A stretch of 38,883 bases of DNA, from the IMG/VR virus record IMGVR_UViG_2609459833_000016; one strand, 5' to 3'. Positions within the stretch are counted from its first letter, which is position 1. Every line of letters starts with the position of its first letter. Below, one piece after another: positions 9,525 to 34,389 of this stretch. The notes under the pieces were generated by a model. It was not told the DNA's origin. It saw nothing but the letters and a program-made list of their open reading frames with translations, and did not search any database. This DNA comes from a virus (taxonomy: Duplodnaviria > Heunggongvirae > Uroviricota > Caudoviricetes). The position numbers were made by a program, and so were the translations under genes.

Positions 9525-11126
9525 TCAGTATGCGCGCTGGAACAGCCCGATGCCTTCATTGTCATTTGTCGACGTAATTTCATTACACACCATCCATGAG
9601 CCCGGAACTGAGGATAGGTTGCCGTCAATGCCATCGGTGTTAGCTTTCATATAGTTCCCGCTTGCATCTTTGATTATGGCGCATCGCTTAAGGCGTGAAC
9701 CCTGTACAGTTTCTCCTGGCTGATAGGTTTTGTTGAGGTCGGTTACATACGGGGTTAGTGCGGCAATAATGTATGTTCCGATGCTGTAAATTTCCCCGGG
9801 TACCAGCCTTCCGGTTGGCCCTTGTGGTCCGGTTTCACCTGTCGGGCCCTGTCTTCCTGTTTCTCCCTGCAAACCTCGTGGTCCGGTGTTCCCCTGCGGC
9901 CCCGTCGGTCCCGTCGGTCCCGTCGGCCCCGTCGGCCCGGCAGGTCCTTGTCGACCCGCTGGCCCCTCGGCCCCCAGTTCCTTCCAGTCCGTCCATGGAC
10001 CATTTCCGGTGAAATTACCGTTGACAGCCCTGACAAACTTCCTGATGGGGTTCCATGTAGTGTATTCCTGTTGACAGAAACCCCAGGCTCCCATTTTCAC
10101 GGACAGGTATCCCGCCTGTTCAACGGGGTAGTGCATGGCGGTGGTTGCATCTTTATTGGCCGACTGATAGTAATCCCCGTGGTGTTCTGGTTTTCCCAGT
10201 GTATTGAGATCAACGGTCAGCGCGGTATATTTCGCCTTCTGTGCTCCGCTTTGTGTTGACTGTTGAAGTTGTTGTACGGTCTGGTTTGTGGCATTGATTT
10301 GTTGCTCCAGTGTTGAGGCTTTCTCACTTGCTGCCTGTGCACTCTGTTTAGCCTGTTCAGCCAGTTTTTCGGCTTCAGTGGCTTTCTGCATGGTGAGCTG
10401 GACTGCCTTTGGTGTTGCAGCGGCGTTTTCGGCGGCGCTGCCCGTTTCGCTGCTCAGCCGGACGATGCCTTTCTGGCTGGTCGTGGCGTCAGTGACTGAA
10501 GATTTTTCATTAATCATTCCTTTCAGCGTTTTGATGGCCTTAGAGGTTGCGGCTGTTTCTTCGCTGTCACTGTCGGTGGCACTGCTCAGTTGCACAAATC
10601 CCTTTGTGCTTGTGGATGCAGACTGGTGGGTGCCGCTTTTTTCATGTTCTTTGATGGCCTGATCCAGAGCGGCTTTTGTGACCATGACAACTGACTGATC
10701 CAGTTTAATATTCAGCGCAGAAATATTACTCAGGAGAATAACCATCCTGAATACCTGCTCCCGACCTGAACCTTCCTCCAGCTTCGGTTTGTAACCTTCT
10801 GCTACGTTGCCAACAGCAATCAGGGCACCTTCATCATCGAATAACCCAATCTCCCTCACCCAGAAGCCGCCCTGGTCAGCGGGAATAACCAGCTCTGCGG
10901 TGACAAAGCTTTCATTCTCCGCATCCTGTGTGATGCTGGAGATATTCCCTTCCCAGACTTTTTTCACCAGTTGTTTTTGCCCTTCTGATGGCTCCACTTC
11001 CTGGCCGTTGCCGTCGCCCACCTGCATCTTTGCCAGGGTGACTTTTTTTCCACCGGGCTTCAGGGCTTCGGCCAGCTTCCGGCGGCCCTCAGTGGTGATA
11101 ATGGTTTTGTATTTCTGTGTCATGGT
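9525..11126 (-). CDS. H: Tail fiber protein H with collagen-like Gly-X-Y repeat region
   Basis: N-terminus [20 protein letters not shown]...[21 protein letters not shown] matches the conserved gpH N-terminal domain; C-terminal part is divergent. Confidence 0.85.
9808..9976 (-). repeat. Collagen-like (Gly-X-Y)n coding repeat within tail fiber gene H, including a 4x 9-bp tandem repeat (about 9901-9936)
   Basis: Translation [52 protein letters not shown]; the plus strand shows CCCGTCGGT/CCCGTCGGC repeated four times. Confidence 0.7.
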
Positions 11127-11839
11127 TCCTCCGGTGCCGGTTTTACGATGGTCGTTGTGCCGTCGTATGTTGTTCCGGCTATACAGATAGCGGCTTGTGC
11201 GGCGCACGGTGACGGTATCTCCGTATCCGGTTTAACCCGGGTTATGTCACTGTCGTAAATCGCGCCAGCACAATAAATTTCTCCTCCGGTAATGCAGGGG
11301 TTCGGCAGTGTTGCGTCCGGATATACCTGTATGATGTCTCCGCTATGACTCACTGCCCCGGTAAAGACTTCCCCTTTTGCAATGTATGTCAGCCTCAGTG
11401 CTTTCAGGTGACGGCTTACCGGCTTCGCCAGCGCAATCATGCGCTCCATTTCCTGATAGGTCGCCTCTGTCAGGGCTGCATGTGTAACATCGATGTTGAG
11501 ACGAAAACTGCCTGGAGGGTCGCCGTTTTCCCACCACTCTGTAATGCTCAGCAGCGCGCCGAACGGGGCAATAGCTCTTCTCATGGCGCTGATGGTCCCC
11601 TTATGACGGTGAACCATCCACGACTCGCGTATAACGTCCCGGCGAGTCTCTTCCGTCCATGCCTTATCCCATCTGTCCACTGAAAGCGTCCATGCGAGCC
11701 ATGGCAGCAGTACTTCAGGGCATTCGTCCGCATTCCACAGGGTGTTAAGTTTCACCGGCAGCTGGCTGATTTTTTCCCCGGAGCGATCAACGGTTTTCAG
11801 AAAAACACTGGCAGACGGCGGAAGCACCGTTTTACTCAT
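11120..11839 (-). CDS. I: Baseplate protein I with a C-terminal extension carrying a duplicated Cys-containing motif
   Basis: N-terminal 170 aa match the gpI pattern ([15 protein letters not shown]...[13 protein letters not shown]...[18 protein letters not shown]); extra C-terminal 60 aa. Confidence 0.8.
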
Positions 11840-12728
11840 CGGTCCCCCCGGCGCGAATCTCTGTGGCGGAGCATCGCGCCGCCTGTGTTTCGCTGATCAC
11901 CAGATCCTTCGCTGGTTGTGTTAACTCCACCCGCTGAACTCCGGGCACATGCAGGGCCGCCATGATGGCTGAACGGGCAACGTCACGACCAATTCTTCGC
12001 TGCTCTGCCAGCCACGCCTCCAGTTGTGCCCGTGCGGCCTGAAGTATGGGTTCTGATTCCGGCCCCGGGTAAAAATAGAGTGTCGCATCAATCTTGTAGC
12101 TGATGATTTCCGCGCTTTTCACCGTCAGTCTGTCCGCCACGGGGCGAACTGTTTCGTCGTTCAGTACGGCTTTCACTTCGTTAATCAGTGCTTCGTTCGC
12201 CGTTCCGTCTCCGTCGGCTGAAAGGAGCGCAACCACAACTTCCGCCGGTGCCGGGCTGGTTGCTCTGGCATCTGCCACTTTTCCGCTTGCGCTGCGTGCA
12301 AAATACTCATATGAGCCGGAAGGCCCGGCAACACTCATCCCTTCAAAGGCGCTCTGTATGCGCATCCGGAACGCGGCGTCACTTTCCATTACCGCCGGTG
12401 TGGTCTCCGTTGCTTCGGTGATAACCAGGCGCTGCACATTCATGTTTACACCCAGATTGTCAAGATCGCTTCCTGATGAATGACTCAGCATACAGGCCGC
12501 TGCGCCATCATTGATACGCTGCCGCAGTAACAGCTCCCGCCATGCCATAGCCTGAGCGATGATGTTCAGTGGTTCGGACTCCAGTTCAAGGGCTGCCGCC
12601 ACTTCATCGCGCATGGCTTCCGGAAAGACGCTAATCATGAATGTCTTTGTCTGTGCCAGAATCACTTCATAATCCAGCGATTCAATGATCGCCGGTTGCG
12701 GCAGCTGGGATAAATCAATTGTCGGCAT
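11832..12728 (-). CDS. J: Baseplate assembly protein J
   Basis: N-terminus MPTIDLSQLPQP... typical of gpJ; overlaps W and I as in P2. Confidence 0.85.
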   Translation of the reverse strand: MPTIDLSQLPQPAIIESLDYEVILAQTKTFMISVFPEAMRDEVAAALELESEPLNIIAQAMAWRELLLRQRINDGAAACMLSHSSGSDLDNLGVNMNVQRLVITEATETTPAVMESDAAFRMRIQSAFEGMSVAGPSGSYEYFARSASGKVADARATSPAPAEVVVALLSADGDGTANEALINEVKAVLNDETVRPVADRLTVKSAEIISYKIDATLYFYPGPESEPILQAARAQLEAWLAEQRRIGRDVARSAIMAALHVPGVQRVELTQPAKDLVISETQAARCSATEIRAGGTDE

Positions 12729-13083
12729 CCTTCCCTCCCTGTATATCAACGGAAATACTGGCGCTCTGCATGGTGCTTACAATCAGATAGCTCATGGATA
12801 ACACTGCGCTGCCATTGTTTCTCCACGTCAGGTCCACGCTGTTTATGGCAACGCGTGGCTCCCATCGTGTAATGGCGATCACGGCGGCACTCATACAGCG
12901 CAGTCTGGTTATTTCATTTGCCGGACTGTCAAGAAGAGCGGGCAGGTTGCTGCCATACTCGCGCCGCATAACACGCGAACCTTCCGGTGTCAGGATAATA
13001 TCCGTGATTGACTGGTTCAGATGGTCGATGTCTGTCAGCGTTCCGTAGCCTGCGTGATTCATGCCTGTGTAGCCGGTACTCAT
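12715..13083 (-). CDS. W: Baseplate protein W
   Basis: 122-aa ORF with gpW-like sequence (GMN..G..LTD..H..QSI.DIL.TP.GSRVMRR.YGS). Confidence 0.85.
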   Translation of the reverse strand: MSTGYTGMNHAGYGTLTDIDHLNQSITDIILTPEGSRVMRREYGSNLPALLDSPANEITRLRCMSAAVIAITRWEPRVAINSVDLTWRNNGSAVLSMSYLIVSTMQSASISVDIQGGKDADN

Positions 13084-13661
13084 TGTGGGCCTCCGCTCGT
13101 ATCGCTACCGCTCTTCACTCCGCTGTGTACGTGGGTGTGTACGGTGATGCCGTTTGATTCGAGGCTGCCGCCACTGTGTTTCACGTTGCCTTTCATTGTT
13201 CCGCCGCTGGTCAGCTCGAATGTCTTTGTCTTCAGCAACTGCGTACATTCCACCTTTGGCGCGTCCAGCGTGATACTGGTTTCAGCCGTAATGGTTGCGG
13301 TTTTTATACCTCTGGCCGTCAGGCTGCTTTCCTGTGCGTTATAGCGAAATTCCGCACCGTCCGGCGCGGTAATGACCATTTCGTTTTCCAGCGATCCCGG
13401 TGGCGGGTTGTCGTTGCTGTACAGACTTCCTGCGCTGACTGCGGTTTCCGGATTGCCGCCCGGGCATAGGAGAAACACCTGTTCGTCCGGTGATGGGGGG
13501 ATCCAGATTTTAAATTTTCCGGCCCGCCCGCTGTTCCATCGGATCCAGTTTGTGGTCAGGCCGCCGGTCTGCACACGCACCTCCCAGGTGTCGGTGTTGA
13601 TTTCCGTAACCACACCAATCCGCACAATGTTTTCCAGCAGACGCATAAGCTCGATGTTCAT
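13080..13661 (-). CDS. V: Baseplate spike/hub protein V
   Basis: 193-aa ORF with gpV-like OB-fold N-terminus and C-terminal spike region; position between S and W. Confidence 0.85.
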   Translation of the reverse strand: MNIELMRLLENIVRIGVVTEINTDTWEVRVQTGGLTTNWIRWNSGRAGKFKIWIPPSPDEQVFLLCPGGNPETAVSAGSLYSNDNPPPGSLENEMVITAPDGAEFRYNAQESSLTARGIKTATITAETSITLDAPKVECTQLLKTKTFELTSGGTMKGNVKHSGGSLESNGITVHTHVHSGVKSGSDTSGGPQ

Positions 13662-25600: not shown

Positions 25601-26137
25601 GTGAAAAATTACTCATATCCTTATTTAACTTTTGTCACGCTTTCTGTTTTGGGGGGGATTTTTCTTTTTATTTGGTGGCGAAACGATGTTTACAGAATTA
25701 CCTACCTTTATTCGTTCACGACAAACTGCCTTGTTTCAGTGTCTGTGGTGCTTTCGGTTTTTGTCTCACTGTGCCTGTTGAAAAAGAACCTGGTTGATCG
25801 GTCTAAATTTACCGGGGTTACATCGTATCTTAAGTTTTTTTCGGGTATGTGCCTTCTTACCTGGATGATTCTGTTTACCCTCCTGGTTACGCTGATATAT
25901 TTTCTTCCGGGTGAAGATTCATTCTATTCCGCTCCCTATGAGTACAGTCGCGGTAGCTCAAAAAGTTGTTCAGGGGCATTTGTTGATGATCCTGATTTGC
26001 AAAAAACAATCTTTATTTGCTACCCATACGGTGACTATCAGGATGGTAATGTGATTTATGTGAAGAAGCGTGTGAATGCGCTGGGTGCGGTGGTCACCTA
26101 TGCATACGCGACAAGCGGCCGATTTCGGTTTGACTGA
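25601..26137 (+). CDS. Hypothetical membrane protein (3 predicted TM helices + about 80-aa soluble C-terminal domain), AT-rich
   Basis: ORF track 25493..26137 starts at TTG; the AT-rich coding part and a GGTGAG SD suggest a GTG start near 25601. No recognisable family. Confidence 0.5.
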   Translation: MKNYSYPYLTFVTLSVLGGIFLFIWWRNDVYRITYLYSFTTNCLVSVSVVLSVFVSLCLLKKNLVDRSKFTGVTSYLKFFSGMCLLTWMILFTLLVTLIYFLPGEDSFYSAPYEYSRGSSKSCSGAFVDDPDLQKTIFICYPYGDYQDGNVIYVKKRVNALGAVVTYAYATSGRFRFD

Positions 26138-26139
26138 AA

Positions 26140-26176
26140 AAAGAAATCCTGTGTTACCCTCGCTGCTGAGGGTAAC
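26140..26176 (-). terminator. Hairpin terminator between convergent membrane-protein gene and post-A operon
   Basis: GTTACCCTC-GCTGCT-GAGGGTAAC perfect 9-bp stem, with T-run on the minus strand. Confidence 0.5.
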
Positions 26177-26186
26177 ATGCGTGAAG

Positions 26187-26504
26187 TCATCGCCCGGTTC
26201 TTGAGCTGATAATGCTTTGCGTCAGCAGCTGCCAGCCCTCTTTCTGTTGCCCGTACTTGTCCTGATACCTGTTTACCTGCAAGTTTCCGTGCACCAGAAT
26301 CAGATCGCCTTTTCTGTGTTTTGCCAGTTCTTCGTGCTGCTTCCCGAATGAAATAAGGTAAAGCCACATTGTGGTTGGCTGTTCTGCGCCATGGCAGGGT
26401 AGTGATACCGCCAGTTGTGCCGTTGTGACGTTGGTTCCTTTGGTTGTTCTCCTTGTGTTCGGGTCTGCTGCCAGTCGTCCCTCTGTTGCAACCTGTGTTG
26501 GCAT
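26187..26504 (-). CDS. Short SSB-like OB-fold protein (no Gly-rich linker or acidic C-terminal tail)
   Basis: Aligns by eye to the E. coli SSB core: ...FGK..E.....RKG....HG.L....Y.D..GQ..E..... Confidence 0.55.
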   Translation of the reverse strand: MPTQVATEGRLAADPNTRRTTKGTNVTTAQLAVSLPCHGAEQPTTMWLYLISFGKQHEELAKHRKGDLILVHGNLQVNRYQDKYGQQKEGWQLLTQSIISSRTGR

Positions 26505-26536
26505 ATTTGTCTCCCGTGTTGGTTTTATTGTTGGGG

Positions 26537-26875
26537 TTAGATGACTGGCAGCTCTTCGCCAGCGCCGTAGATAAACAGAATTCGCTTCATGATTTCGCTT
26601 CGCTTGCAGTCCTGGATTACGGACGGCTTTTGTTGCTGTTCAGCCCGCCGCTCCAGCTCCAGTCGTTCCTTTTCCGTTGGCTTCCGGTAATGCGTTATCT
26701 TGTCCGTGTACCCGTCCACAACCAGCAGCCCTTCGCGTACCATCTTTCCGGCGGCCTGATTAATGATGGTCCTTTTCACGCCCAGTTTTTCAACCAGCTC
26801 TGGCGCGCTGAAGCGTGCGTGCGTTTCCAGGTAGCGTAAAATGATTACCTTTCCGGTCATTCTGGGTGTCTTCAT
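26537..26875 (-). CDS. Hypothetical winged-helix-like DNA-binding protein
   Basis: IILRYLETHARFSAPELVEKLGVKRTIINQAAGKMVREGLLVVDG has HTH/wing character; start chosen at the internal MKTPRMTGK. Confidence 0.45.
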   Translation of the reverse strand: MKTPRMTGKVIILRYLETHARFSAPELVEKLGVKRTIINQAAGKMVREGLLVVDGYTDKITHYRKPTEKERLELERRAEQQQKPSVIQDCKRSEIMKRILFIYGAGEELPVI

Positions 26876-27081
26876 TTGGCGGCTCCTTCGTTGTTCCGGC
26901 GTTCGCGGAGTTCGGTCAGTGCTGCCAGTAAATTTTCCCACCATGTTTCTTCCACAACCGGATTTCGTCGTGAAAGCAGCTGCTGCGCCGACTCAATCAT
27001 TTTCGTAAGCTCTTTGTCGCTGATCCTCCTGATGTCGTTCATGGTGTGCTCCTTCGGTTTGCTGTTTCTGGTCATGTTCAT
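26872..27081 (-). CDS. Hypothetical small protein (69 aa)
   Basis: ORF in the operon downstream of A; helical and charged. Confidence 0.4.
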   Translation of the reverse strand: MNMTRNSKPKEHTMNDIRRISDKELTKMIESAQQLLSRRNPVVEETWWENLLAALTELRERRNNEGAAK

Positions 27082-27090
27082 GGTCTTTTG

Positions 27091-27495
27091 TTACCTGCGT
27101 GATTGCCTGCTGGCGGCCGAATGCACATAGCTGACAATTGCCGCTTTTCGGTTAACGACGGCCAGCGTTCTTGCCAGTTCTTCGTTGAGTTTTCTGGTCT
27201 GTTTTTCGTGGTATGCCTGCATGATTTTTCCTACGGGAGTCAGTGGTTCAGGCTCTGATATGGCGCGACGAGGGCGCACGGCAACGATGAATGCGCTTCT
27301 GTCGGTGTTGGTTCTTGCAGTCAGGATATCGGTCATGACGGTATCTGTGCTGCGATCGGGGTTTGCGATCGTGATCTCCAGTTCGTCGCCTGGCTGTGGT
27401 CGAACACTGACGCCGCTCAGCGTCAGTGCCGGAATGCGTCCACTCATGATGGCGCTGAAATCATGGTGCTGGAGTACACAATGGAATCGTGTCAT
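27091..27495 (-). CDS. Hypothetical protein (134 aa), translationally coupled to gene A
   Basis: Start codon overlaps the A stop by 4 nt. Confidence 0.55.
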   Translation of the reverse strand: MTRFHCVLQHHDFSAIMSGRIPALTLSGVSVRPQPGDELEITIANPDRSTDTVMTDILTARTNTDRSAFIVAVRPRRAISEPEPLTPVGKIMQAYHEKQTRKLNEELARTLAVVNRKAAIVSYVHSAASRQSRR

Positions 27496-30011
27496 GGGTT
27501 CACCTCCGGTTGATCTGCTGCCACCAGGCTTCGTGATTTCTCATCCCAGTGCACAATCCGCCCGTCAGGCAGGCGAACGCGTGCACCTCTGTGTACGGAA
27601 AGTGCTGCGCCACTGTGTAGCTCCTCGCCCGTCGCGCTCAGTGCCGACTTGATTACGGTGGTGGTGACGTCAGTCAGCGGCAATGCTGTACGCACATGTA
27701 TGACGTCATCGGGCGTGGTGGGGCCGCCGGTTTTCACGGTTTTTGTGTCAGATGGCGCATCTTTCAGCTGCCTGGTGAGTTGTTTTCGCTTTGTGGGGGT
27801 CAGTGACCTTAACCACTCACCCAAATCACCTCCCGGGACGACCAGTTTTTGTTCTTTCCTGGTTTCCGGTGGTGGGTTTTTACCCTCTCCGGTGTCTGTT
27901 TTTTCATCATGGGGACAGTTATTGCCACGAGTCCAAGGTGCGGCGAAGCCGCCCCCAACGTCAAAATCCTCGTCCGTGCTGTTGTCGGCTTTCGCTTCTT
28001 TTCTGACCAGTTTCCACTCGTCCGGATGGGTGCAGATGGTGTAGCGCTCGCCGAGTCCGAGCGACGGGGCACAAATTCCGTAGATGCGCTGCGGGAATTC
28101 GCCGTAGTCGTTGGCCTCATCTGCGGTTTCGTATGCGGTGCGGATCAGGTACAGGTTGCGTGGAATGAGCACGCCGCCCTGACGGTTGATGTAGGTGGCA
28201 AAACACCCCACGTCAGCGGCGGCCAGAATGGCGTCAATGTCGTCATGGTCCAGGCGCTTCGGTGATGCGGGGTTACGCTCCATTTGTCCGGCAAGGCGGC
28301 GGAGTTCACGCCATACCTGGCGGGGCGGGATACCGAAGAACTGGAACTGCCGGATGCGGTGGAGACTCGCCCAGGCAATGGCGTTTTCCACGGTTTCCGC
28401 CATGGTTTTTCCCGATTCTTTATCGGCGTAAGGTTTGCCGGTTTTCGGGTCATTGTCGTGAAAGGTGCTGGCGTCCAGGTTCTTGCCAATATAGGTTGCG
28501 ATGTAGCTTGCCGGTGTGCCTTTTGCCGGGTCGATTTTTTCGCACTTGAAGCGCGGAGAAATATCATTCCCCAGTTCTGCGCGATCTGATTTGATTGCTG
28601 CGTCACGCATGATTTCAATGATGCGTTCTTCATTGTCCGGGGCGGTGAATACCAGCATGTGCCAGTGCGGTGTGCCGTCATGGTGTGGCTCAACGGTGCG
28701 CACCCCGTACCAGCTCAGGCCTTCTTTGTTGAGTTTTTTTCTTGCAGCTGCAAAGACGTCGTAAACCAGATAATCACTGGCATCGCGCACGGTGGCACCG
28801 TTGTATTTCGGGTTCAGGCTGCCGTCCTCGTTTACGCTGTGAAAGCGGGAAGGGCAGGTCACTGTCACGAAGAACGCGGAGTCACCACGCGATTCGGCGA
28901 CCTGTTCCATCCCTCTGACGCAGGCCATCATCTCGTTGCGGCGGTTGCGCGGATTCCCCAGCCCTGACCAGTACACGTCCTCCAGGCTCAGGCGTTCACC
29001 GTCTTCGTTTTCAATGTCCCAGCTTTTGAGAAAATCACGGGTGCGCTGGCGTTTCTCCCGGAATTCCTGGAGTGACTCATGGCTGATGTAGGGGGATGCC
29101 TTGCGCGATACTCTTCCGGCGGCACGCAGTAATTCCTCCCGCCAGAGATCAGCGAGGTGGCGCAGCTGGTTGTTCCACCAGGTGGCGCAGGTGATACGCA
29201 TTACCGCGCCCGGTACCAGTTCAGGGTCTGGTGCCGTGCGGCGGTCACGTCTGATCTCGAGTGACGGCCAGTATGGTGGGTTCACGCCCAGTTTTATTGC
29301 CATGCGCGCCAGCTGCTGGTAAGTCAGCAACCAGGTAAACAGGTTATCGTCGCCTTTTCCTGTCCGCTCAGTAACTTCATCACATATGCGTTCCAGTTCG
29401 GTGGAAAATGCCGCCGCCGTTAGTGTGGCAAGGCGCTGAATTTGATCACGGTTGAGTTGTGGCAGCATGAGTAATTCATCAAGGCGATGGCGTGCTGCGG
29501 TGGCTTTGAATGCCGTCGTGGCGAAGCATTCATTCACCTGTTCGATGCGTTTCAGGCGTGTGCGCAGTCCACGGCGAACGAAGTTATCGGCCACGTGAGT
29601 GTTGTTGTTTTTCACGCCTTCATTGCGGGCGCTTTGTTGTTTGCGGTTTAAACGCGCCAGATCACGAATGAGCACGTTGCCAAGAAACGAGGGCAGGGCG
29701 CGAAGTTCTGCCATGGCTTCCGATACCACCGTGGGCGGATTCTCGCGTTTGTGCTTCGCCAGTTTTTCCAGTCTGACCCGACGCTCTTCGTCGTGGTGAA
29801 GATGCGAATTAATTCGCTTGCCTTCGTCTGTGTTTGTCAGGAAGGAGACGGTTTCTTCATCCAGTCTGGCATCAATGCGAATGTCCTCGTTGATGTAGCT
29901 CTGAATGGCCTGGCGTAATGCGGTTGGTTGTGCTCTGCCGAACGTTTCAGGATCGATAACCGGTAGCGGTGCGTTCCACGGGTACGCCAGCTGTGCATTG
30001 CGGTCACTCAT
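27492..30011 (-). CDS. A: Replication initiation endonuclease A (rolling-circle HUH relaxase-type)
   Basis: 839-aa ORF with HUH motif region (VEPHHDGTPHWHMLVF) and downstream catalytic Tyr region. Confidence 0.9.
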   Translation of the reverse strand: MSDRNAQLAYPWNAPLPVIDPETFGRAQPTALRQAIQSYINEDIRIDARLDEETVSFLTNTDEGKRINSHLHHDEERRVRLEKLAKHKRENPPTVVSEAMAELRALPSFLGNVLIRDLARLNRKQQSARNEGVKNNNTHVADNFVRRGLRTRLKRIEQVNECFATTAFKATAARHRLDELLMLPQLNRDQIQRLATLTAAAFSTELERICDEVTERTGKGDDNLFTWLLTYQQLARMAIKLGVNPPYWPSLEIRRDRRTAPDPELVPGAVMRITCATWWNNQLRHLADLWREELLRAAGRVSRKASPYISHESLQEFREKRQRTRDFLKSWDIENEDGERLSLEDVYWSGLGNPRNRRNEMMACVRGMEQVAESRGDSAFFVTVTCPSRFHSVNEDGSLNPKYNGATVRDASDYLVYDVFAAARKKLNKEGLSWYGVRTVEPHHDGTPHWHMLVFTAPDNEERIIEIMRDAAIKSDRAELGNDISPRFKCEKIDPAKGTPASYIATYIGKNLDASTFHDNDPKTGKPYADKESGKTMAETVENAIAWASLHRIRQFQFFGIPPRQVWRELRRLAGQMERNPASPKRLDHDDIDAILAAADVGCFATYINRQGGVLIPRNLYLIRTAYETADEANDYGEFPQRIYGICAPSLGLGERYTICTHPDEWKLVRKEAKADNSTDEDFDVGGGFAAPWTRGNNCPHDEKTDTGEGKNPPPETRKEQKLVVPGGDLGEWLRSLTPTKRKQLTRQLKDAPSDTKTVKTGGPTTPDDVIHVRTALPLTDVTTTVIKSALSATGEELHSGAALSVHRGARVRLPDGRIVHWDEKSRSLVAADQPEVNP

Positions 30012-30424
30012 GCGTCGTACTCCCCGCCAGTGACCTCCTGAAACGCCGCGCGGTACAGCACGAGAAGGCGCTGGTATTCACCGATAAAGTCTTCTGCGGT
30101 GTATATGCCTTTCACGGCCACGCTGTGGGTTGTCATTTCCAGAACCAGTGCCATCTCTGACGATGACCAGCTGATGGCGGTACTGTCGGTGCCGTTGATG
30201 TGAAATAAACCAAAGCCATCACCGTCACCTTTCACGTCCACGCGGTAACGACCGTCAACGGTGAAGGAGAAATCCCCGTATGTGGTGATGCTGCGGGCGG
30301 CCTGTTTACAGGCGCGGCGGTAGTAGTCGTGCCAGTTGTTCAGGCGGGAAGCCAGCAGGGGATCCACCGCCCACATCCAGTTAAAAAAGTCCTGAATATC
30401 TGAAAGTCCCTTAACGCTCTTCAT
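30008..30424 (-). CDS. Hypothetical protein (138 aa), coupled to A
   Basis: ORF overlapping the A start by 4 nt; position matches P2 orf80-83. Confidence 0.55.
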   Translation of the reverse strand: MKSVKGLSDIQDFFNWMWAVDPLLASRLNNWHDYYRRACKQAARSITTYGDFSFTVDGRYRVDVKGDGDGFGLFHINGTDSTAISWSSSEMALVLEMTTHSVAVKGIYTAEDFIGEYQRLLVLYRAAFQEVTGGEYDA

Positions 30425-30492
30425 GAGAACCTCCGGTAACAGACGTGCGGAAGCCTCCCGCGCACGGGTGCGGGATGGCTTCAGGATGTGGT

Positions 30493-30714
30493 TTATCGGT
30501 GCTGGTTGATGAGGCTTTGCAGTTCTGCCAGATCTTCGGCGAGATAGCTGAAGACAGCAGCGCAGTAACGGTTTGATAGTGCGTGCGTGCGCTCATGCAG
30601 CATGTTGATATGCATGATTTGCGCGACGCGTGTTGCGCGGAAAAGTCTGCGGTTGATTTCAGTCTGGATGTGACGACGCTCAGCGCGGGCGCGCTGTTGC
30701 TTGCGGTTTGCCAT
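30493..30714 (-). CDS. Hypothetical basic protein (73 aa)
   Basis: ORF with Arg-rich N-terminus. Confidence 0.4.
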   Translation of the reverse strand: MANRKQQRARAERRHIQTEINRRLFRATRVAQIMHINMLHERTHALSNRYCAAVFSYLAEDLAELQSLINQHR

Positions 30715-31097
30715 GGTGTGGCCTCTTCGTTTGTGAATTTTGAAAACTCACCAACCAGAGGTGGAAAACTCAGGGTGGCGAGACGTACAGGGTTTCCACA
30801 ACCGGCAAACGAAGAAACCGGCCCGACCGAAGTCGGCCCTGTACGCCCCGCCATAATTCTGACGCGAAAAAGACGTGGCGATACAGTACGCACAAAAAAA
30901 CCGCTGGCGCGGCTGTGCGCTTCGTTTGTCAGCGGGGTGGAAATCCCGGCACCCGTTTTATGAGGTGCAGCGGAAATGTAACCCGACACGACGAGCGCTG
31001 GCAAGCGGTTTTTGTGTTGCGTGCTGATGTGGTTAGAATGTTGCGAATTAATATCACCTGGCAACTGGTGATTGTCTGCATACGCGGGGTGTTTCTG

Positions 31098-31562
31098 ATG
31101 AGTGATAAGCTCCCTTCTGATTACGAAATTCTTTTTGACCTGTGGTACAGCTACTGGCTTGAACACATGACAAGCCTTCTCCACCGTCGCGCTTCCTTGG
31201 TTCTGAGGATTAGCGCTTTCCTTGCGATTGTTGCCGCATTCATTTTTTGCGACAGCGCAACGTTTGTTTTCGCCAGTGTGGTGCTCTTTCTGGTGTGGCA
31301 GGTCATGGCTGCCTCTCTTTCTATCAGAGCTGAAAAGGCTGAATGGCAGGCGCTTAGCTATCAAAGACTGATTAGCCAGCGCCACGTGCTCACCCCGGAA
31401 TGCATGATTGCGCGCCTCTCCTTTGTTGAGGAAAGTGACAGCCCCGTGATGGAGTGCATGATCAACCTTGCCTGGAATAAAGCCTGTGAGACGGTTGGTA
31501 GCTCTTCGCGCAATCATGTTTCGATCTCCGGTCGGTTACTCAGTCGCCTGTGTGGCTTTTGA
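31098..31562 (+). CDS. Hypothetical 2-TM membrane protein (about 154 aa) on the strand opposite to the early operon
   Basis: Start at the internal ATG of ORF 30915..31562; hydrophobic helices ISAFLAIVAAFIFC and FVFASVVLFLVWQVMAASL; promoter-like TTGCGT/TAGAAT upstream. Confidence 0.5.
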   Translation: MSDKLPSDYEILFDLWYSYWLEHMTSLLHRRASLVLRISAFLAIVAAFIFCDSATFVFASVVLFLVWQVMAASLSIRAEKAEWQALSYQRLISQRHVLTPECMIARLSFVEESDSPVMECMINLAWNKACETVGSSSRNHVSISGRLLSRLCGF

Positions 31563-31886
31563 TTTGTGAAGCAGCTGCGCGACGGTTTCGCCGGCTGCCC
31601 GGTTTTCCGGGAATGACACTGGCATGTTCAGTTTGAGTGCCATTACGTACTCCGCCCGCGCGCCAGCTGAATCCACCCAGCCTTCCAGTAAGTAAATGGC
31701 ATCGGCACACATGAGCATCGGAATACAAATGCTCATGTACTGCTGCTGGCTTAATCCTTCCGGCAACGTGGCAGGGTTCAGCACAACGTGCCCGTCTGCC
31801 GCGAGCCTCATCGCCTCTGTGAAAAACGCCGTTCTGTTGTGATCTTTGTATCCGGTCATTGGACCGGCGATATAAATCACTGCCAT
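31536..31886 (-). CDS. DUF4406-like / nucleoside 2-deoxyribosyltransferase-like protein
   Basis: N-terminus AVIYIAGPMTG is the characteristic Rossmann-like start of this family. Confidence 0.55.
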   Translation of the reverse strand: MAVIYIAGPMTGYKDHNRTAFFTEAMRLAADGHVVLNPATLPEGLSQQQYMSICIPMLMCADAIYLLEGWVDSAGARAEYVMALKLNMPVSFPENRAAGETVAQLLHKSKATQATE

Positions 31887-32095
31887 GCTTTACCTCCCGT
31901 ATTGCGTGTTGCTGTCAGCACGCGTACTTCTTCCATGTTCGTGGCGCAGAAGTGCGAACCGTTGATAAGGCGGATGTGATGCATCTCAGAATTGCGTGAG
32001 TCCTGGCGTGTCATGCCCTGGTCAATCAGGCTTTCGTCTACCTCGTACTGACGGCCGTTGGCTGTGAACCGGATAACGGTTGATTCCTGGATCAT
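31877..32095 (-). CDS. Hypothetical protein (72 aa)
   Basis: ORF coupled (4-nt overlap) to the upstream gene. Confidence 0.4.
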   Translation of the reverse strand: MIQESTVIRFTANGRQYEVDESLIDQGMTRQDSRNSEMHHIRLINGSHFCATNMEEVRVLTATRNTGGKAWQ

Positions 32096-32328
32096 TGCTG
32101 ACTCCTTTGCCCGGCAGATTTCTCGTTGAGCTGCTTTTTAAGGGTGGCGATTTCACTTTCCTGATCCTGAATCACCCGGATTGCTTCCATGGTGATCCTC
32201 AGTGAGATTGCTGAAGCGATAACGAGCTCTGGTCTTCCAGCAGCTGCGATAACTTTTGCTGCTTCCTCATGTGCACGGGCGATGAGACGCAATTCCCGCA
32301 AAAGCTCTTTGTTGTTTTCGCTATTCAT
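32092..32328 (-). CDS. Hypothetical coiled-coil protein (78 aa)
   Basis: Helical, charged ORF directly downstream of dam. Confidence 0.4.
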   Translation of the reverse strand: MNSENNKELLRELRLIARAHEEAAKVIAAAGRPELVIASAISLRITMEAIRVIQDQESEIATLKKQLNEKSAGQRSQQ

Positions 32329-32363
32329 TTCCTGACTCCGGTGTTACTGATTCATCTGTTTAT

Positions 32364-33344
32364 TCACGTACTGGCAGGGGTAAACATCACGCTGTAAGTT
32401 GCATCTCCCGTTACAGGTCCGCAGTCCGGGCAGTAGCCACCGCCATGGTGACCGCAGGCGTCGCACTGTCTCAGGGTGGCGATAACCTCCGGTGCTGATT
32501 CCCGGGTTCTTGCGCCAACGCTTCGTGGTGCCTGTATGCAGTTCATCCGGTAACCCCGATAAATGCGTCGTGTTTCCGGTGTGTCGGAATTGGAGATGGT
32601 GATGCTGGTCATGCCGCCCGTTTCCTGTGAAAGGCGGTCAAGCGCTGCCCTCAGACGAACGTGCTCGTCTTCATCGAATGGTTTTCCGTAGGCGGTAAAA
32701 TTGTCCCGGCCACTGAATTGCAGGTAAGGGGGATCGCAGTACACGCAAAGCGTGTTGCCCATGCCGAACAGGTGACTGGCAGAGTTCAGCGTATCCTTAA
32801 AATCTGCGTGGATAAGCAGCGTTCGGGTGCTGTTTGCCTTGTCTGCAAATGCGCGGATTTCACGCTCAGGGAAGTAGGGCTTGCGGTAGCAGCCGAAAGG
32901 CACGTTAAAATCGCCTTTTCCGTTCACGCGGAACAAACCGTTAAAGCTGTGTCGGTTCAGGTACAAAAACATGGCGGCCAGTCGCAGTTCACGGCGGTCG
33001 CTTATTCCCGTTCTGCTGTTCAGGAAGGCATGATTCTCTGCGTTAAAGGTTTCGCGAATGATGAGATAGTCACCCCTGTTGTTGTGGTTCAGGAACAGGG
33101 TTTTCGCCTCGTCGATCAGGCTGTCGGAGTTGTCCCTGGCTTGCCGGTAGAAATTAATCAGCGCACCATTGGAATCACCCAGGATGTAACGCTTGTAACT
33201 GGTGTTCATGAATACCGATGCGCCACCCACAAACGGCTCAACCAGGCAGTCTGCTTCTGGCAGATGCGCCTTCAGTGTGTTCATGATGCGACTTTTTCCG
33301 CCCACCCATTTAAGCGGCGTGCCGGATAACAGTTCTTTGCTCAT
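32364..33344 (-). CDS. dam: DNA adenine methyltransferase (Dam family) with C-terminal Cys-rich zinc-ribbon-like extension
   Basis: Motif I LVEPFVGGASVF and motif IV VYCDPPY; C-terminal CDACGHHGGGYCPDCG. Confidence 0.85.
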   Translation of the reverse strand: MSKELLSGTPLKWVGGKSRIMNTLKAHLPEADCLVEPFVGGASVFMNTSYKRYILGDSNGALINFYRQARDNSDSLIDEAKTLFLNHNNRGDYLIIRETFNAENHAFLNSRTGISDRRELRLAAMFLYLNRHSFNGLFRVNGKGDFNVPFGCYRKPYFPEREIRAFADKANSTRTLLIHADFKDTLNSASHLFGMGNTLCVYCDPPYLQFSGRDNFTAYGKPFDEDEHVRLRAALDRLSQETGGMTSITISNSDTPETRRIYRGYRMNCIQAPRSVGARTRESAPEVIATLRQCDACGHHGGGYCPDCGPVTGDATYSVMFTPAST

Positions 33345-33577
33345 AACGCGGCCTCTTTGTTATAGGTTTCGTGCGTTAATAAATCCCATGACGCCCCGTT
33401 GTTTTTGCTCAGCAATCGCCAGCGAAAACCGATTCTTATTACCAGGTAGTCGTGGGGTTTTATGCGTGAAAAATTCCGCACGCCGTCGCGGAATAAACGC
33501 AGCGATGCGCGGGCTTTTCTTTCCACGTTCAGGGGGGGGCAGCAACACACATTCAGGATGGCGACCATGGCTTCACC

Positions 33578-34168
33578 TCATATGTTCAGGAATGGTGTTG
33601 TGAAGCGCTGCCAGATTTCTGACACGACCTTTGCCTGGTAAACGGCATCGCCCAGTGCAGTGTGAGCAATAGCCTCCTTTCCTGATCTGCCTGGCATTTT
33701 CCATCCAGTTGATTCAGCCATGGCGATAAGCGGGCGCATACAGCGCTCGTTCCAGTAGCACCAGGGGATGCTTTTTTCTCCGGCTGTGCGTGTTATGGCG
33801 GATTTCAGGATCGGGAAATCGAAGGATGCGCCTTTGCACCATATGGTCAGTGAATTGCCCGGGCTTTCGTCATGCATATTGCGTGAAATGAACGCCAGAA
33901 ATTCGGTTACTGCCGCAAGCTCTGTTCCCTCTGCGTTGCGCAGGCAGGATCTGGCCTCCACGGATTGTCCGGCCCACCATACAGCGGTGGCTGCATTGAC
34001 GGTTCCGCCGTTGCGTTCTGAATCCACCGGGTCGATGAATTTCTCAAACTGCTTGCCCAGCTTTCCGGTGAACGGGTCGAAAAACACCGCCCCAATCGCG
34101 AATATGGCTGCGCCCGGTCCGTTACCCAGTGTTTCGGTGTCAATCATGAGATGGTTCATTATGCGCAC
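33578..34168 (-). CDS. DEDD-family 3'-5' exonuclease (DnaQ-like)
   Basis: Exo I motif MIDTETLG and Exo III-like HTALGDAVYQ. Confidence 0.75.
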   Translation of the reverse strand: MRIMNHLMIDTETLGNGPGAAIFAIGAVFFDPFTGKLGKQFEKFIDPVDSERNGGTVNAATAVWWAGQSVEARSCLRNAEGTELAAVTEFLAFISRNMHDESPGNSLTIWCKGASFDFPILKSAITRTAGEKSIPWCYWNERCMRPLIAMAESTGWKMPGRSGKEAIAHTALGDAVYQAKVVSEIWQRFTTPFLNI

Positions 34169-34389
34169 CCCTTCAGTTCGTCTGGGTTGGCGAGTATTGC
34201 AATCAGTCGTTCAATGGCTGCGCAGGTTTCCTGTGGACAGGTGTGTGTCTCTTTCGCTGTCTCAGTCAGCTCGCGCAGTAATTCGCAGATATGTGCACGC
34301 TCGGCTTTTCTTGCGGCCATGCTGATATGCGCATGATGGTTAGCTGGTCTGGCGGTTATTTCTCTGCCGGGTGATTCGGCTGTTCTCAT
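34159..34389 (-). CDS. Hypothetical protein (76 aa)
   Basis: ORF upstream of and overlapping the exonuclease gene start. Confidence 0.4.
   Translation of the reverse strand: MRTAESPGREITARPANHHAHISMAARKAERAHICELLRELTETAKETHTCPQETCAAIERLIAILANPDELKGCA

Follow-up and report, generated by a model that had tools for sequence, protein, structure and literature searches.

The acidic C-terminal tip of single-stranded DNA-binding proteins (SSBs) is a hub that recruits host replication and repair enzymes, and several bacterial immune systems have recently turned out to be set off by phage SSBs. SSB-type proteins that have dispensed with this tip are known. PriB is an SSB-derived primosome protein of 104 aa that has an OB fold without a tail, about the size of the 105-aa protein described below. 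Another is Bacillus subtilis SsbB (PDB 3vdy), a chromosomal competence protein that binds and protects internalised ssDNA (PMC3384303). Tailed SSBs of 133-153 aa are found in Enterobacterales satellite-like islands, which are common in E. coli. The early regions of temperate phages offer two further points of comparison. In lambda, ren follows the replication gene P with an overlapping start, and in P2 the genes old and tin sit between gpA and gpQ, a hotspot that also holds many defence systems. Tin poisons the T4 ssDNA-binding protein gp32 (Mosig et al. 1997).

Here we describe a string of small genes behind replication gene A of a P2-family prophage, the last of which encodes an SSB without a tail. 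A tip-less SSB in the replication operon of a temperate phage is a natural experiment: it could show how a coat for ssDNA serves a rolling-circle phage when cut off from the host SSB interactome, and whether loss of the tip alters visibility to immunity. Furthermore, the string holds a homologue of lambda Ren and an ASCH-like protein, which open two further ways into the little-understood accessory genes that follow A in P2-family early operons. The SSB annotation is correct and is already the one in RefSeq ("single-stranded DNA-binding protein"), the gene is rare and optional, and Rousset et al. 2022 already include its arrangement in their table of the hotspot; the role we propose for it is a prediction.

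Layout of the genes downstream of A

The window, by which we mean the whole 38,883-nucleotide stretch of viral record IMGVR_UViG_2609459833_000016, carries replication initiator gene A at 27492..30011 on the minus strand. Its 839-aa product is an HUH nicking endonuclease of P2-family phages (Pfam Phage_GPA, E = 1.9e-108; phrog_91, E = 1.6e-242), which RefSeq names "replication endonuclease". Gene A heads a coupled string in which, as an earlier note on this DNA had it, four ORFs follow on the same strand: g134 (27091..27495, 134 aa), g69 (26872..27081, 69 aa), a 112-aa gene (26537..26875) and, last, the 105-aa SSB gene (26187..26504). The overlaps and short gaps can be read directly from the sequence. 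The A stop codon TGA (27494-27492) overlaps the g134 ATG (27495-27493) as ATGA, with GGAGG 7 nt upstream, and 9 nt separate the g134 stop from the g69 ATG. The g69 stop in turn overlaps the ATG of the 112-aa gene (ATGA, 26875-26872), with GGAG upstream, and a 32-nt gap leads from the stop of that gene to the SSB ATG, which has GGGAG 6 nt upstream. Directly behind the SSB gene lies a terminator-like element (26137..26177, minus strand), made up of a 10-bp hairpin (26152-26177), a 5-nt spacer and UUUCUUUUUU (26137-26146). The RNA fold of hairpin and U-run has an MFE of -20.5 kcal/mol (z = -2.95); the element is absent from the consensus-scan list because the U-run begins 5 nt past the stem.

A consensus scan, which would miss a weak internal promoter, found no sigma-70-like site on the minus strand from A to the last gene. 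The string has what is expected of an operon with A: a shared strand, genes that overlap or lie close together, a terminator at the end, and neither a promoter-like site nor a terminator inside it. Judging from this arrangement, the SSB gene is apparently co-transcribed with A rather than driven by a promoter of its own. The order A-g134-g69-Ren-SSB is repeated in every related locus that spans all five genes, and pairwise dN/dS in the string is 0.12-0.60, so these genes are not chance ORFs. We read the region as the last part of the early (replication) operon in an E. coli prophage of the P2 family, with four small genes translationally chained to A; this explanation, taken as a whole, could in our judgment equally turn out right or wrong. 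A P2-like A is present in 2420 E. coli genomes, and only 27 of them share the DNA of the last ~135 codons of the A described here (about 27492-27900 in the window). A 19-mer of the P2 cos site, used as a query, had no match.

A genuine SSB core

The 105-aa product is a genuine SSB-family OB-fold core. The likeness had been seen by eye in the earlier note, and profile searches and structure comparison agree with it. The protein scores 50.9 bits with Pfam SSB PF00436, a model whose cut-off is 26 (E = 1.7e-13). It matches phrog_44 with an E value of 2.8e-23 and scores 47.6 bits with TIGR00621, which is under the cut-off of that model (53.95). Its PDB matches, by sequence or profile and by fold, are SSBs only. 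We took an SSB-type OB fold to be a five-stranded barrel with a helix between beta3 and beta4, and the AlphaFold2 model of the protein (pLDDT 86.9) has its strands and helix in the expected SSB order. When this model was compared with the PDB using Foldseek, the top 50 matches were all SSB cores, with TM scores of 0.66-0.81. An identity as PriB was rejected: no PriB family or structure appeared among the NCBIfam matches, when the PDB was searched by sequence and by profile, or in the Foldseek top 50. The gene context, unlike that of PriB, is not rpsF-priB-rpsR.

Identity to E. coli SSB is 27%. W54, F60, W88 and W40 of E. coli SSB align with W47, F53, Y80 and C37, so that three of the four positions are still aromatic; the Cys at the W40-equivalent position is invariant across the mobile-element SSB subfamily. 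H55 of E. coli SSB is L48 here. The fold-defining residues are conserved, and the N-terminus fits that of the family (MPTQV vs MTAQI).

The linker and the acidic tip are missing from this protein, as had been noted earlier, and their absence is conserved throughout the clade. The chain ends in SIISSRTGR. In the alignment, tailed relatives have SVISARTVRP at this place, ahead of their linker and DDxPF tip, and the protein stops exactly where the linker of these relatives begins; the relatives continue for 30-50 residues to DDxPF-type tips. The clade falls into three sequence clusters (76-97% identity), and the protein is 105 aa long in each of them. No remnant of a tail was found 3' of the SSB stop codon, which is directly followed by the terminator hairpin. 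The partner factors of SSB bind the acidic tip (PMC10018359). A decoy for SSB-interacting factors, as had been suggested, is thus mechanistically unlikely, since the docking site of these factors is what the protein does not have.

Relatives of the SSB

At 44-53% identity, the tailed SSBs of the satellite-like islands are the closest relatives. They share with the 105-aa protein the OB-fold core, the N-terminus and the W47, F53 and G54 positions. Their genes adjoin DUF927 primase/helicase genes, which gives this SSB family a replication-module context. The protein described here differs from them in having no linker or DDxPF tip and in being encoded in a P2-family early operon. In a neighbor-joining (NJ) tree its clade sits on a long branch of its own, within the wider mobile-element SSB family and outside the satellite clade; direct descent from the island SSBs is not supported by this tree. 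SsbB is distant in sequence. A sequence search matches it with E = 1.4e-3 and a profile search with 2.7e-10. Both proteins consist of an SSB OB core (about 105-115 aa) and lack a partner-recruiting tip; SsbB is the product of a chromosomal competence gene and the protein studied here that of a phage early gene. By analogy, the role of the 105-aa protein may parallel that of SsbB.

The kinship with island SSBs raises the question of whether the protein is a dominant-negative subunit that co-assembles with tailed host or satellite-island SSBs, forms tip-poor tetramers and so cripples the replication of a competitor or of the host. A tetramer of E. coli SSB does not function unless several of its tails are present, and the tailed island proteins are both the nearest in identity and widespread in E. 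coli, as this idea would have it. An identity of only 27% to E. coli SSB and the separate long branch of the clade speak against co-assembly, and we consider it highly improbable. A broader version would make tail loss either a weapon of the helper phage, dominant-negative against satellite-island or host SSB and leaving replisomes starved of tip contacts, or a stealth device, in which the shed tip leaves host ssDNA-processing enzymes unperturbed and SSB-responsive immunity untriggered. Were it true, loss of the SSB tail would be an adaptive move in phage-satellite or phage-host conflict; of all the readings weighed here, we give it the least credence.

Distribution and selection

Of 5426 complete E. 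coli genomes, 27 carry the SSB gene. No near-identical phage has been sequenced: the phage collection held no DNA match and no protein match to g134, and the only match to the 105-aa SSB there was a distant one in a Faecalibacterium phage. In two sibling prophages (L032 and L033) the cassette runs A-g134-small ORF-Ren and ends at Ren, without an SSB gene, and the P2-type Ren loci L039 and L040 have none either. One copy of the SSB gene is interrupted by an IS3-family insertion, and some copies have an in-frame deletion of 20 aa. The gene is an optional, dispensable distal member of the cassette, and since it is often lost, any benefit that it brings to replication is small or conditional.

Such a record is what one would expect if the gene were a functionless remnant of a once-tailed SSB gene, drifting toward loss. 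It is rare, it has been inactivated independently by insertion, by deletion and by clean absence, and no isolated phage carries it. We consider this explanation quite unlikely, however, because the gene that remains looks maintained. Its product keeps its length of exactly 105 aa across three clusters, even where identity has fallen to 76%, and the fold-defining residues are retained; its dN/dS is 0.13-0.40 at dS values up to 0.35, which indicates purifying selection; the ribosome binding site is good; and the terminator stands right behind the stop codon. A recent truncation or pseudogene is unlikely too, given the lack of a tail remnant behind the stop codon, the constant length at 76% identity and a dN/dS below 1. 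Neither an unrelated family nor a degraded remnant without homologues, the outcomes that would have spoken against the original assignment, was encountered: profile searches put the protein among the SSBs, and its homologues are conserved and evolve under purifying selection.

The gpA-gpQ hotspot

The gene order here is A ... SSB-like gene, 178-aa gene, portal gene Q, which places the SSB gene at the edge of the gpA-gpQ defence hotspot. The earlier note had pointed to P2 Tin as a neighbour that targets a phage SSB. This is correct as background, and the link is positional only: none of the genes in the string resembles Tin. Common to P2 tin and old and to the SSB gene are the map interval and the theme of ssDNA-binding proteins. 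Unlike that cargo, the SSB gene shows no Tin homology, no PADLOC family match and an apparent co-transcription with A.

One could nevertheless suppose that the protein is a Tin-like exclusion factor of the hotspot, made in the lysogen and disturbing the ssDNA metabolism of superinfecting phages. Its gene does lie between gpA and gpQ, at the site of old, tin and many defence systems, it comes and goes among otherwise similar prophages, and the arrangement has its place in the table of Rousset and colleagues. A factor made in the lysogen would fit poorly with a gene that begins 32 nt past the Ren stop, preceded by a ribosome binding site and by no promoter-like site. The truly variable cargo sits further on, between the SSB gene and the portal gene (a 178-aa membrane protein here, a TumE toxin-antitoxin pair elsewhere), and in composition the SSB gene is like the phage backbone (GC content 0.52) and unlike its low-GC neighbour (0.42 in the adjacent cargo gene). 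In PADLOC we found only noise (the SSB matched BrxA at E = 0.018, and Ren had weak wHTH matches), so membership in a known defence system was rejected. Neither a promoter of its own nor similarity to known defence genes was found for the SSB gene by promoter scan and PADLOC, and we regard an exclusion factor as very unlikely.

Predicted role of the SSB

The suggestion of a replication accessory fits the 105-aa SSB best, to judge from its sequence and context. We propose that it is a coat for ssDNA in the lytic cycle that is unable to recruit the host partners of SSB, a proposal for and against which we see the case as evenly balanced. The protein would be made only in lytic growth, along with A, and would probably bind ssDNA as a homo-oligomer, with the equivalents of W54 and F60 kept, W88 replaced by Tyr and W40 by Cys. 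It may then coat the strand displaced by rolling-circle replication initiated by A. Having no tip, the coat would recruit none of the host SSB partners, such as ExoI, RecJ, RecQ, PriA and RecO. Such a passive, non-signalling coat could supplement host SSB and aid replication without being essential. The Ren homologue and the ASCH-like protein would be other early accessories associated with nucleic acid, and not obligate partners of the SSB.

A different purpose for the same lack of a tip would be counter-defence. The tail-less SSB, possibly with Ren, might keep abortive-infection sensors from noticing the ssDNA or the replication intermediates of the phage, or loss of the tail might be an escape from SSB-responsive immunity. 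Indeed, Hachiman, Nhi, Retron-Eco8, AbpAB, Hna and DRT10 are all activated by phage SSBs, and with DRT10 it has been suggested that a motif at the C-terminal tip of the trigger matters. The sole known phenotype of Ren is protection of lambda from Rex exclusion, Ren and Rex make contact in two-hybrid assays, and the SSB gene is an accessory early gene in the variable region behind A. On the other hand, T7 SSB activates Retron-Eco8 without its C-tail, which means that losing the tail is no general escape route, and Ren and SSB are not generally linked. Within 4 kb of the Ren gene, not one of 71 lambda-type loci in IMG/VR contains an ORF of the SSB family, and Ren of the P2 type is also found where the SSB is absent; an obligate functional pair of the two was rejected on this basis. 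We therefore hold counter-defence to be unlikely.

The Ren homologue, g134 and g69

The winged-helix character ascribed to the 112-aa protein is borne out by weak Pfam matches to the MarR_2 and GntR wHTH models. On sequence grounds this protein is also a homologue of lambda Ren, which had not been noticed before. It matches phrog_142, "Ren-like exclusion protein", with an E value of 2.8e-29; BLASTP aligns it to lambda Ren at 41% identity over 99 residues, nearly the full length (E = 1e-25); and tblastn finds the lambda ren gene. Its dN/dS is 0.12-0.22. Like ren after P, the gene comes directly after replication genes with an overlapping start. It differs in being 16 residues longer and in belonging to a phage of the P2 family, where the rolling-circle initiator A takes the place of O and P. 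The longest ORF for this gene would be 135 aa, from 26944; the ATGA overlap, the ribosome binding site, RefSeq and the alignment with lambda Ren favour 112 aa.

The product of g134 bears an ASCH-type fold, which had likewise been missed. An ASCH/PUA-like beta-barrel takes up residues of about 1-75 and a long C-terminal helix residues 87-133. The similarity is at the level of fold only, and the Pfam ASCH model gave no match to g134 at E ≤ 1.

For g69 the start codon is uncertain and could be M1, M3 or M14. The protein matches phrog_14672 (E = 1.1e-34) over residues 14-69, and residues 20-69 are highly conserved. In one related locus (L002) there is no ATG at the M14 position and the start lies further upstream, which supports a long form.

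A P2-family prophage with four small genes behind replication gene A

The window is a P2-family prophage of Escherichia coli. Genes for portal, large terminase, scaffold and capsid lie to the left of the four small genes, and replication gene A (27492-30011, minus strand; Pfam Phage_GPA, E 1.9e-108) lies to the right. The 1.5 kb spanning the four genes is 99.9% identical to prophages of several complete E. coli genomes, where RefSeq annotates a "replication endonuclease," two "hypothetical proteins," a "MarR family transcriptional regulator," and a "single-stranded DNA-binding protein." The naming of the 105-aa protein as an SSB is thus already known from RefSeq. For E. coli, Rousset et al. 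2022 extracted all gene sets between gpA and gpQ; this arrangement is in their supplementary table, with the same protein accessions and the label "SSB," and their main text never mentions SSB. In the phage collection we searched, neither the 1.5-kb DNA nor g134 nor any close relative of the SSB-like protein occurred in a sequenced phage. Upstream of A, on the same strand (about 30008-34200, placed by correspondence with 9903-13501 of the related locus L001), RefSeq annotates a DUF4406 protein, a DNA adenine methylase, a ParE-family toxin-like protein and a 3′-5′ exonuclease, with several hypothetical genes interspersed.

The earlier note placed four ORFs here and described them as tightly coupled to A; both the coordinates and the coupling hold, and the ORFs are on the minus strand. 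The stop codon of A overlaps the start of g134 (27091-27495) in an ATGA, with GGAGG 7 nt upstream. A 9-nt gap separates g134 from g69 (26872-27081), and a second ATGA, preceded by GGAG, joins g69 to the 112-aa gene (26537-26875). Only 32 nt, with GGGAG among them, precede the 105-aa gene (26187-26504). A consensus scan and a relaxed scan found no sigma-70-like site on the minus strand of the gene string. Following the last stop is a terminator-like element, a 10-bp hairpin, a 5-nt spacer and UUUCUUUUUU (MFE -20.5 kcal/mol, z -2.95). As read from these signals, the layout is that of a single transcription unit, which would start upstream of A and end after the 105-aa gene. The start of g69 is ambiguous: its PHROG profile spans residues 14-69 only, and a strong GAAGGAG lies upstream of M14, but the orthologue in locus L002 lacks an ATG there, so its start must be further upstream.

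The last gene encodes an SSB without a tail

The 105-aa protein belongs to the SSB family. It scores 50.9 bits against Pfam SSB (cutoff, 26) and E 2.8e-23 against phrog_44, and sequence and profile searches of the PDB returned SSBs only. An AlphaFold2 model built with 37 homologues (pLDDT 86.9) has the SSB order of strands and helix, and every one of its top 50 Foldseek matches in the PDB is an SSB core (TM 0.66-0.81). The OB-fold core that had been aligned by eye is therefore the right structural interpretation. PriB was also considered; none of the sequence, profile or Foldseek searches recovered a PriB model or structure.

In an exhaustive protein search, a single cluster at 50% identity contains the 105-aa protein. 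The next matches share 37-47% identity and are mostly 120-170 aa long. A tail of 30-50 residues beyond the OB core, finishing in DDxPF-type tips, is present in many of these and in nearly every relative from enterobacterial genomes. The 105-aa protein ends in SIISSRTGR, which aligns with SVISARTVRP, the residues preceding the linker in relatives. No remnant of a tail was found in the sequence 3′ of its stop codon. Proteins in each of the clade's three 90%-identity clusters (76-97% identical to the query) are exactly 105 aa long, which, together with the missing remnant, indicates that the tail-less state is inherited and maintained in the clade. Family, fold and loss of the tail are thus direct observations, the last bearing out what the earlier note had proposed. 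We file the protein as a tail-less SSB paralogue in a P2-family early operon.

Aligned to E. coli SSB, the protein retains W54 and F60 and has Tyr for W88, Cys for W40 (invariant in the mobile-element subfamily), and Leu for H55. Judged by these residues, the protein probably binds ssDNA. P2 A initiates rolling-circle replication, and the SSB tip recruits host partner proteins. The best-supported reading is that of a passive ssDNA coat in lytic growth: the 105-aa SSB would be produced together with A, would coat the ssDNA arising when A initiates rolling-circle replication and, without a tip, would recruit no host SSB partners. The role of the tip is summarized in published abstracts. Naturally tail-less SSBs that protect ssDNA are known, as B. 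subtilis SsbB binds and protects internalized ssDNA (PMC3384303). For the phage protein we infer ssDNA binding, the timing of expression, the oligomeric state and any advantage to the phage. That it mixes with tailed SSBs as a dominant-negative subunit strikes us as very improbable. A decoy for SSB-interacting factors, one suggestion of the earlier note, is also unlikely, because those factors bind the tip that this protein lacks.

The same note had pointed to P2 Tin. Tin does target a phage SSB (Mosig et al. 1997, as related by a citing paper), but its link to the present gene is only positional. That the SSB acts in the lysogen to exclude other phages as Tin does is very doubtful: both promoter scans left the region upstream of its gene without a promoter-like site, and no PADLOC defense family matches the protein.

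The neighboring genes and the end of A

The 112-aa protein is a homologue of lambda Ren. It matches phrog_142 (E 2.8e-29), tblastn places it on the lambda ren gene, and it shares 41% identity with Ren over 99 residues (E 1e-25). In lambda, ren overlaps the end of P; likewise, the homologue here comes after the replication genes. The sole known phenotype of lambda Ren is protection from Rex exclusion; a recent study ascribes to it a likely part in replication and describes contacts with Rex proteins in two-hybrid assays. A tail-less SSB next to a Ren homologue could suggest counter-defense, all the more since phage SSBs are published triggers of Hachiman, Nhi, Retron-Eco8, AbpAB, Hna and DRT10. 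We nevertheless consider this rather unlikely, as Ren and SSB have no general linkage and T7 SSB activates Retron-Eco8 without needing its tail (published).

In another P2-like lineage (locus L031, 3325-4615), a g134 homologue is joined to A by ATGA, and unrelated small genes (64, 104 and 69 aa) replace g69, Ren and SSB. Such lineage-dependent content shows that the region after A is a modular string of accessory early genes. The DNA of the last ~135 codons of A (27492-27900, minus strand) is itself lineage specific. Of 2420 E. coli genomes in which A is P2-like, only 27 match it, and these are the few that also carry the cassette; in the rest, the alignment of A is confined to the part upstream of about 27900. 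The end of A thus travels with the cassette.

The SSB gene is under selection and optional

Every related locus that spans all five genes (3 E. coli genomes and 4 IMG/VR contigs) has the order A-g134-g69-Ren-SSB, and two shorter IMG/VR contigs keep it over the part they hold. In pairwise comparisons, the SSB gene has a dN/dS of 0.13-0.40, the Ren homologue 0.12-0.22, g134 0.16-0.26 and g69 0.17-0.60, a direct sign of selection; the GC content of the four genes (0.51-0.54) is like that of the phage backbone. That the SSB gene is drifting towards loss is quite improbable.

The SSB gene occurs in 27 of 5426 complete E. coli genomes and the g69-Ren pair in 33 (coverage of at least 80%). Sibling prophages L032 and L033 run A-g134-small ORF-Ren and then directly into hotspot cargo or ogr/portal; they lack the SSB gene, as do two IMG/VR loci with a P2-type Ren. 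In IMG/VR contig L028 (3804-5385), an insertion of ~1.2 kb with ORFs of the IS3-family OrfA/OrfB type splits the gene after about codon 44. Loci L003 (5001-5258) and L029 (568-822) encode an 85-aa variant with an in-frame 20-aa deletion between two "RLA" repeats, which removes strands β1′-β2 of the barrel; the shortened protein keeps its SSB annotation. Dispensability is thus seen directly, and the SSB-less siblings, the split copy and the deletion lineage make the gene an optional, distal member of the string.

Tailed relatives in islands and the variable slot

In one-genome-per-species data, tailed SSBs of Enterobacterales come closest in identity (41-53%). At 16 of the 20 loci found, the gene lies directly 3′ of a DUF927 primase/helicase gene, frequently flanked by Ash, DUF4222, ProQ/FinO and PerC genes, and the context is, judging by these neighbors, that of a satellite-like integrative element. 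Locus L012 (2520-7279; also L004-L021) has the order Ash-DUF4222-DUF927 primase/helicase-SSB-ProQ/FinO-PerC, and in L012 an autotransporter adhesin gene comes next. Tailed SSBs of this island type are common within E. coli too. In a neighbor-joining tree, the tail-less clade forms a long branch of its own within the mobile-element SSB family and outside the enterobacterial island clade; tail loss is therefore derived, and the tree points to no particular donor. In a Klebsiella michiganensis island (L009, 6484-6792), a fragment directly 3′ of the tailed SSB gene matches residues 239-341 of the P2-type portal protein encoded in the window at 53% identity. There are hints here of past recombination between a P2-like phage and an island of this type.

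The truly variable slot of the hotspot is between the SSB gene and the portal gene. In the window it holds a gene for a predicted 178-aa membrane protein (25601-26137, plus strand; phrog_1416; GC 0.42), convergent to the SSB-like gene. In related prophages, the same slot carries a pair of toxin-antitoxin type, a TumE-family toxin and an HVO_A0114 DNA-binding protein.
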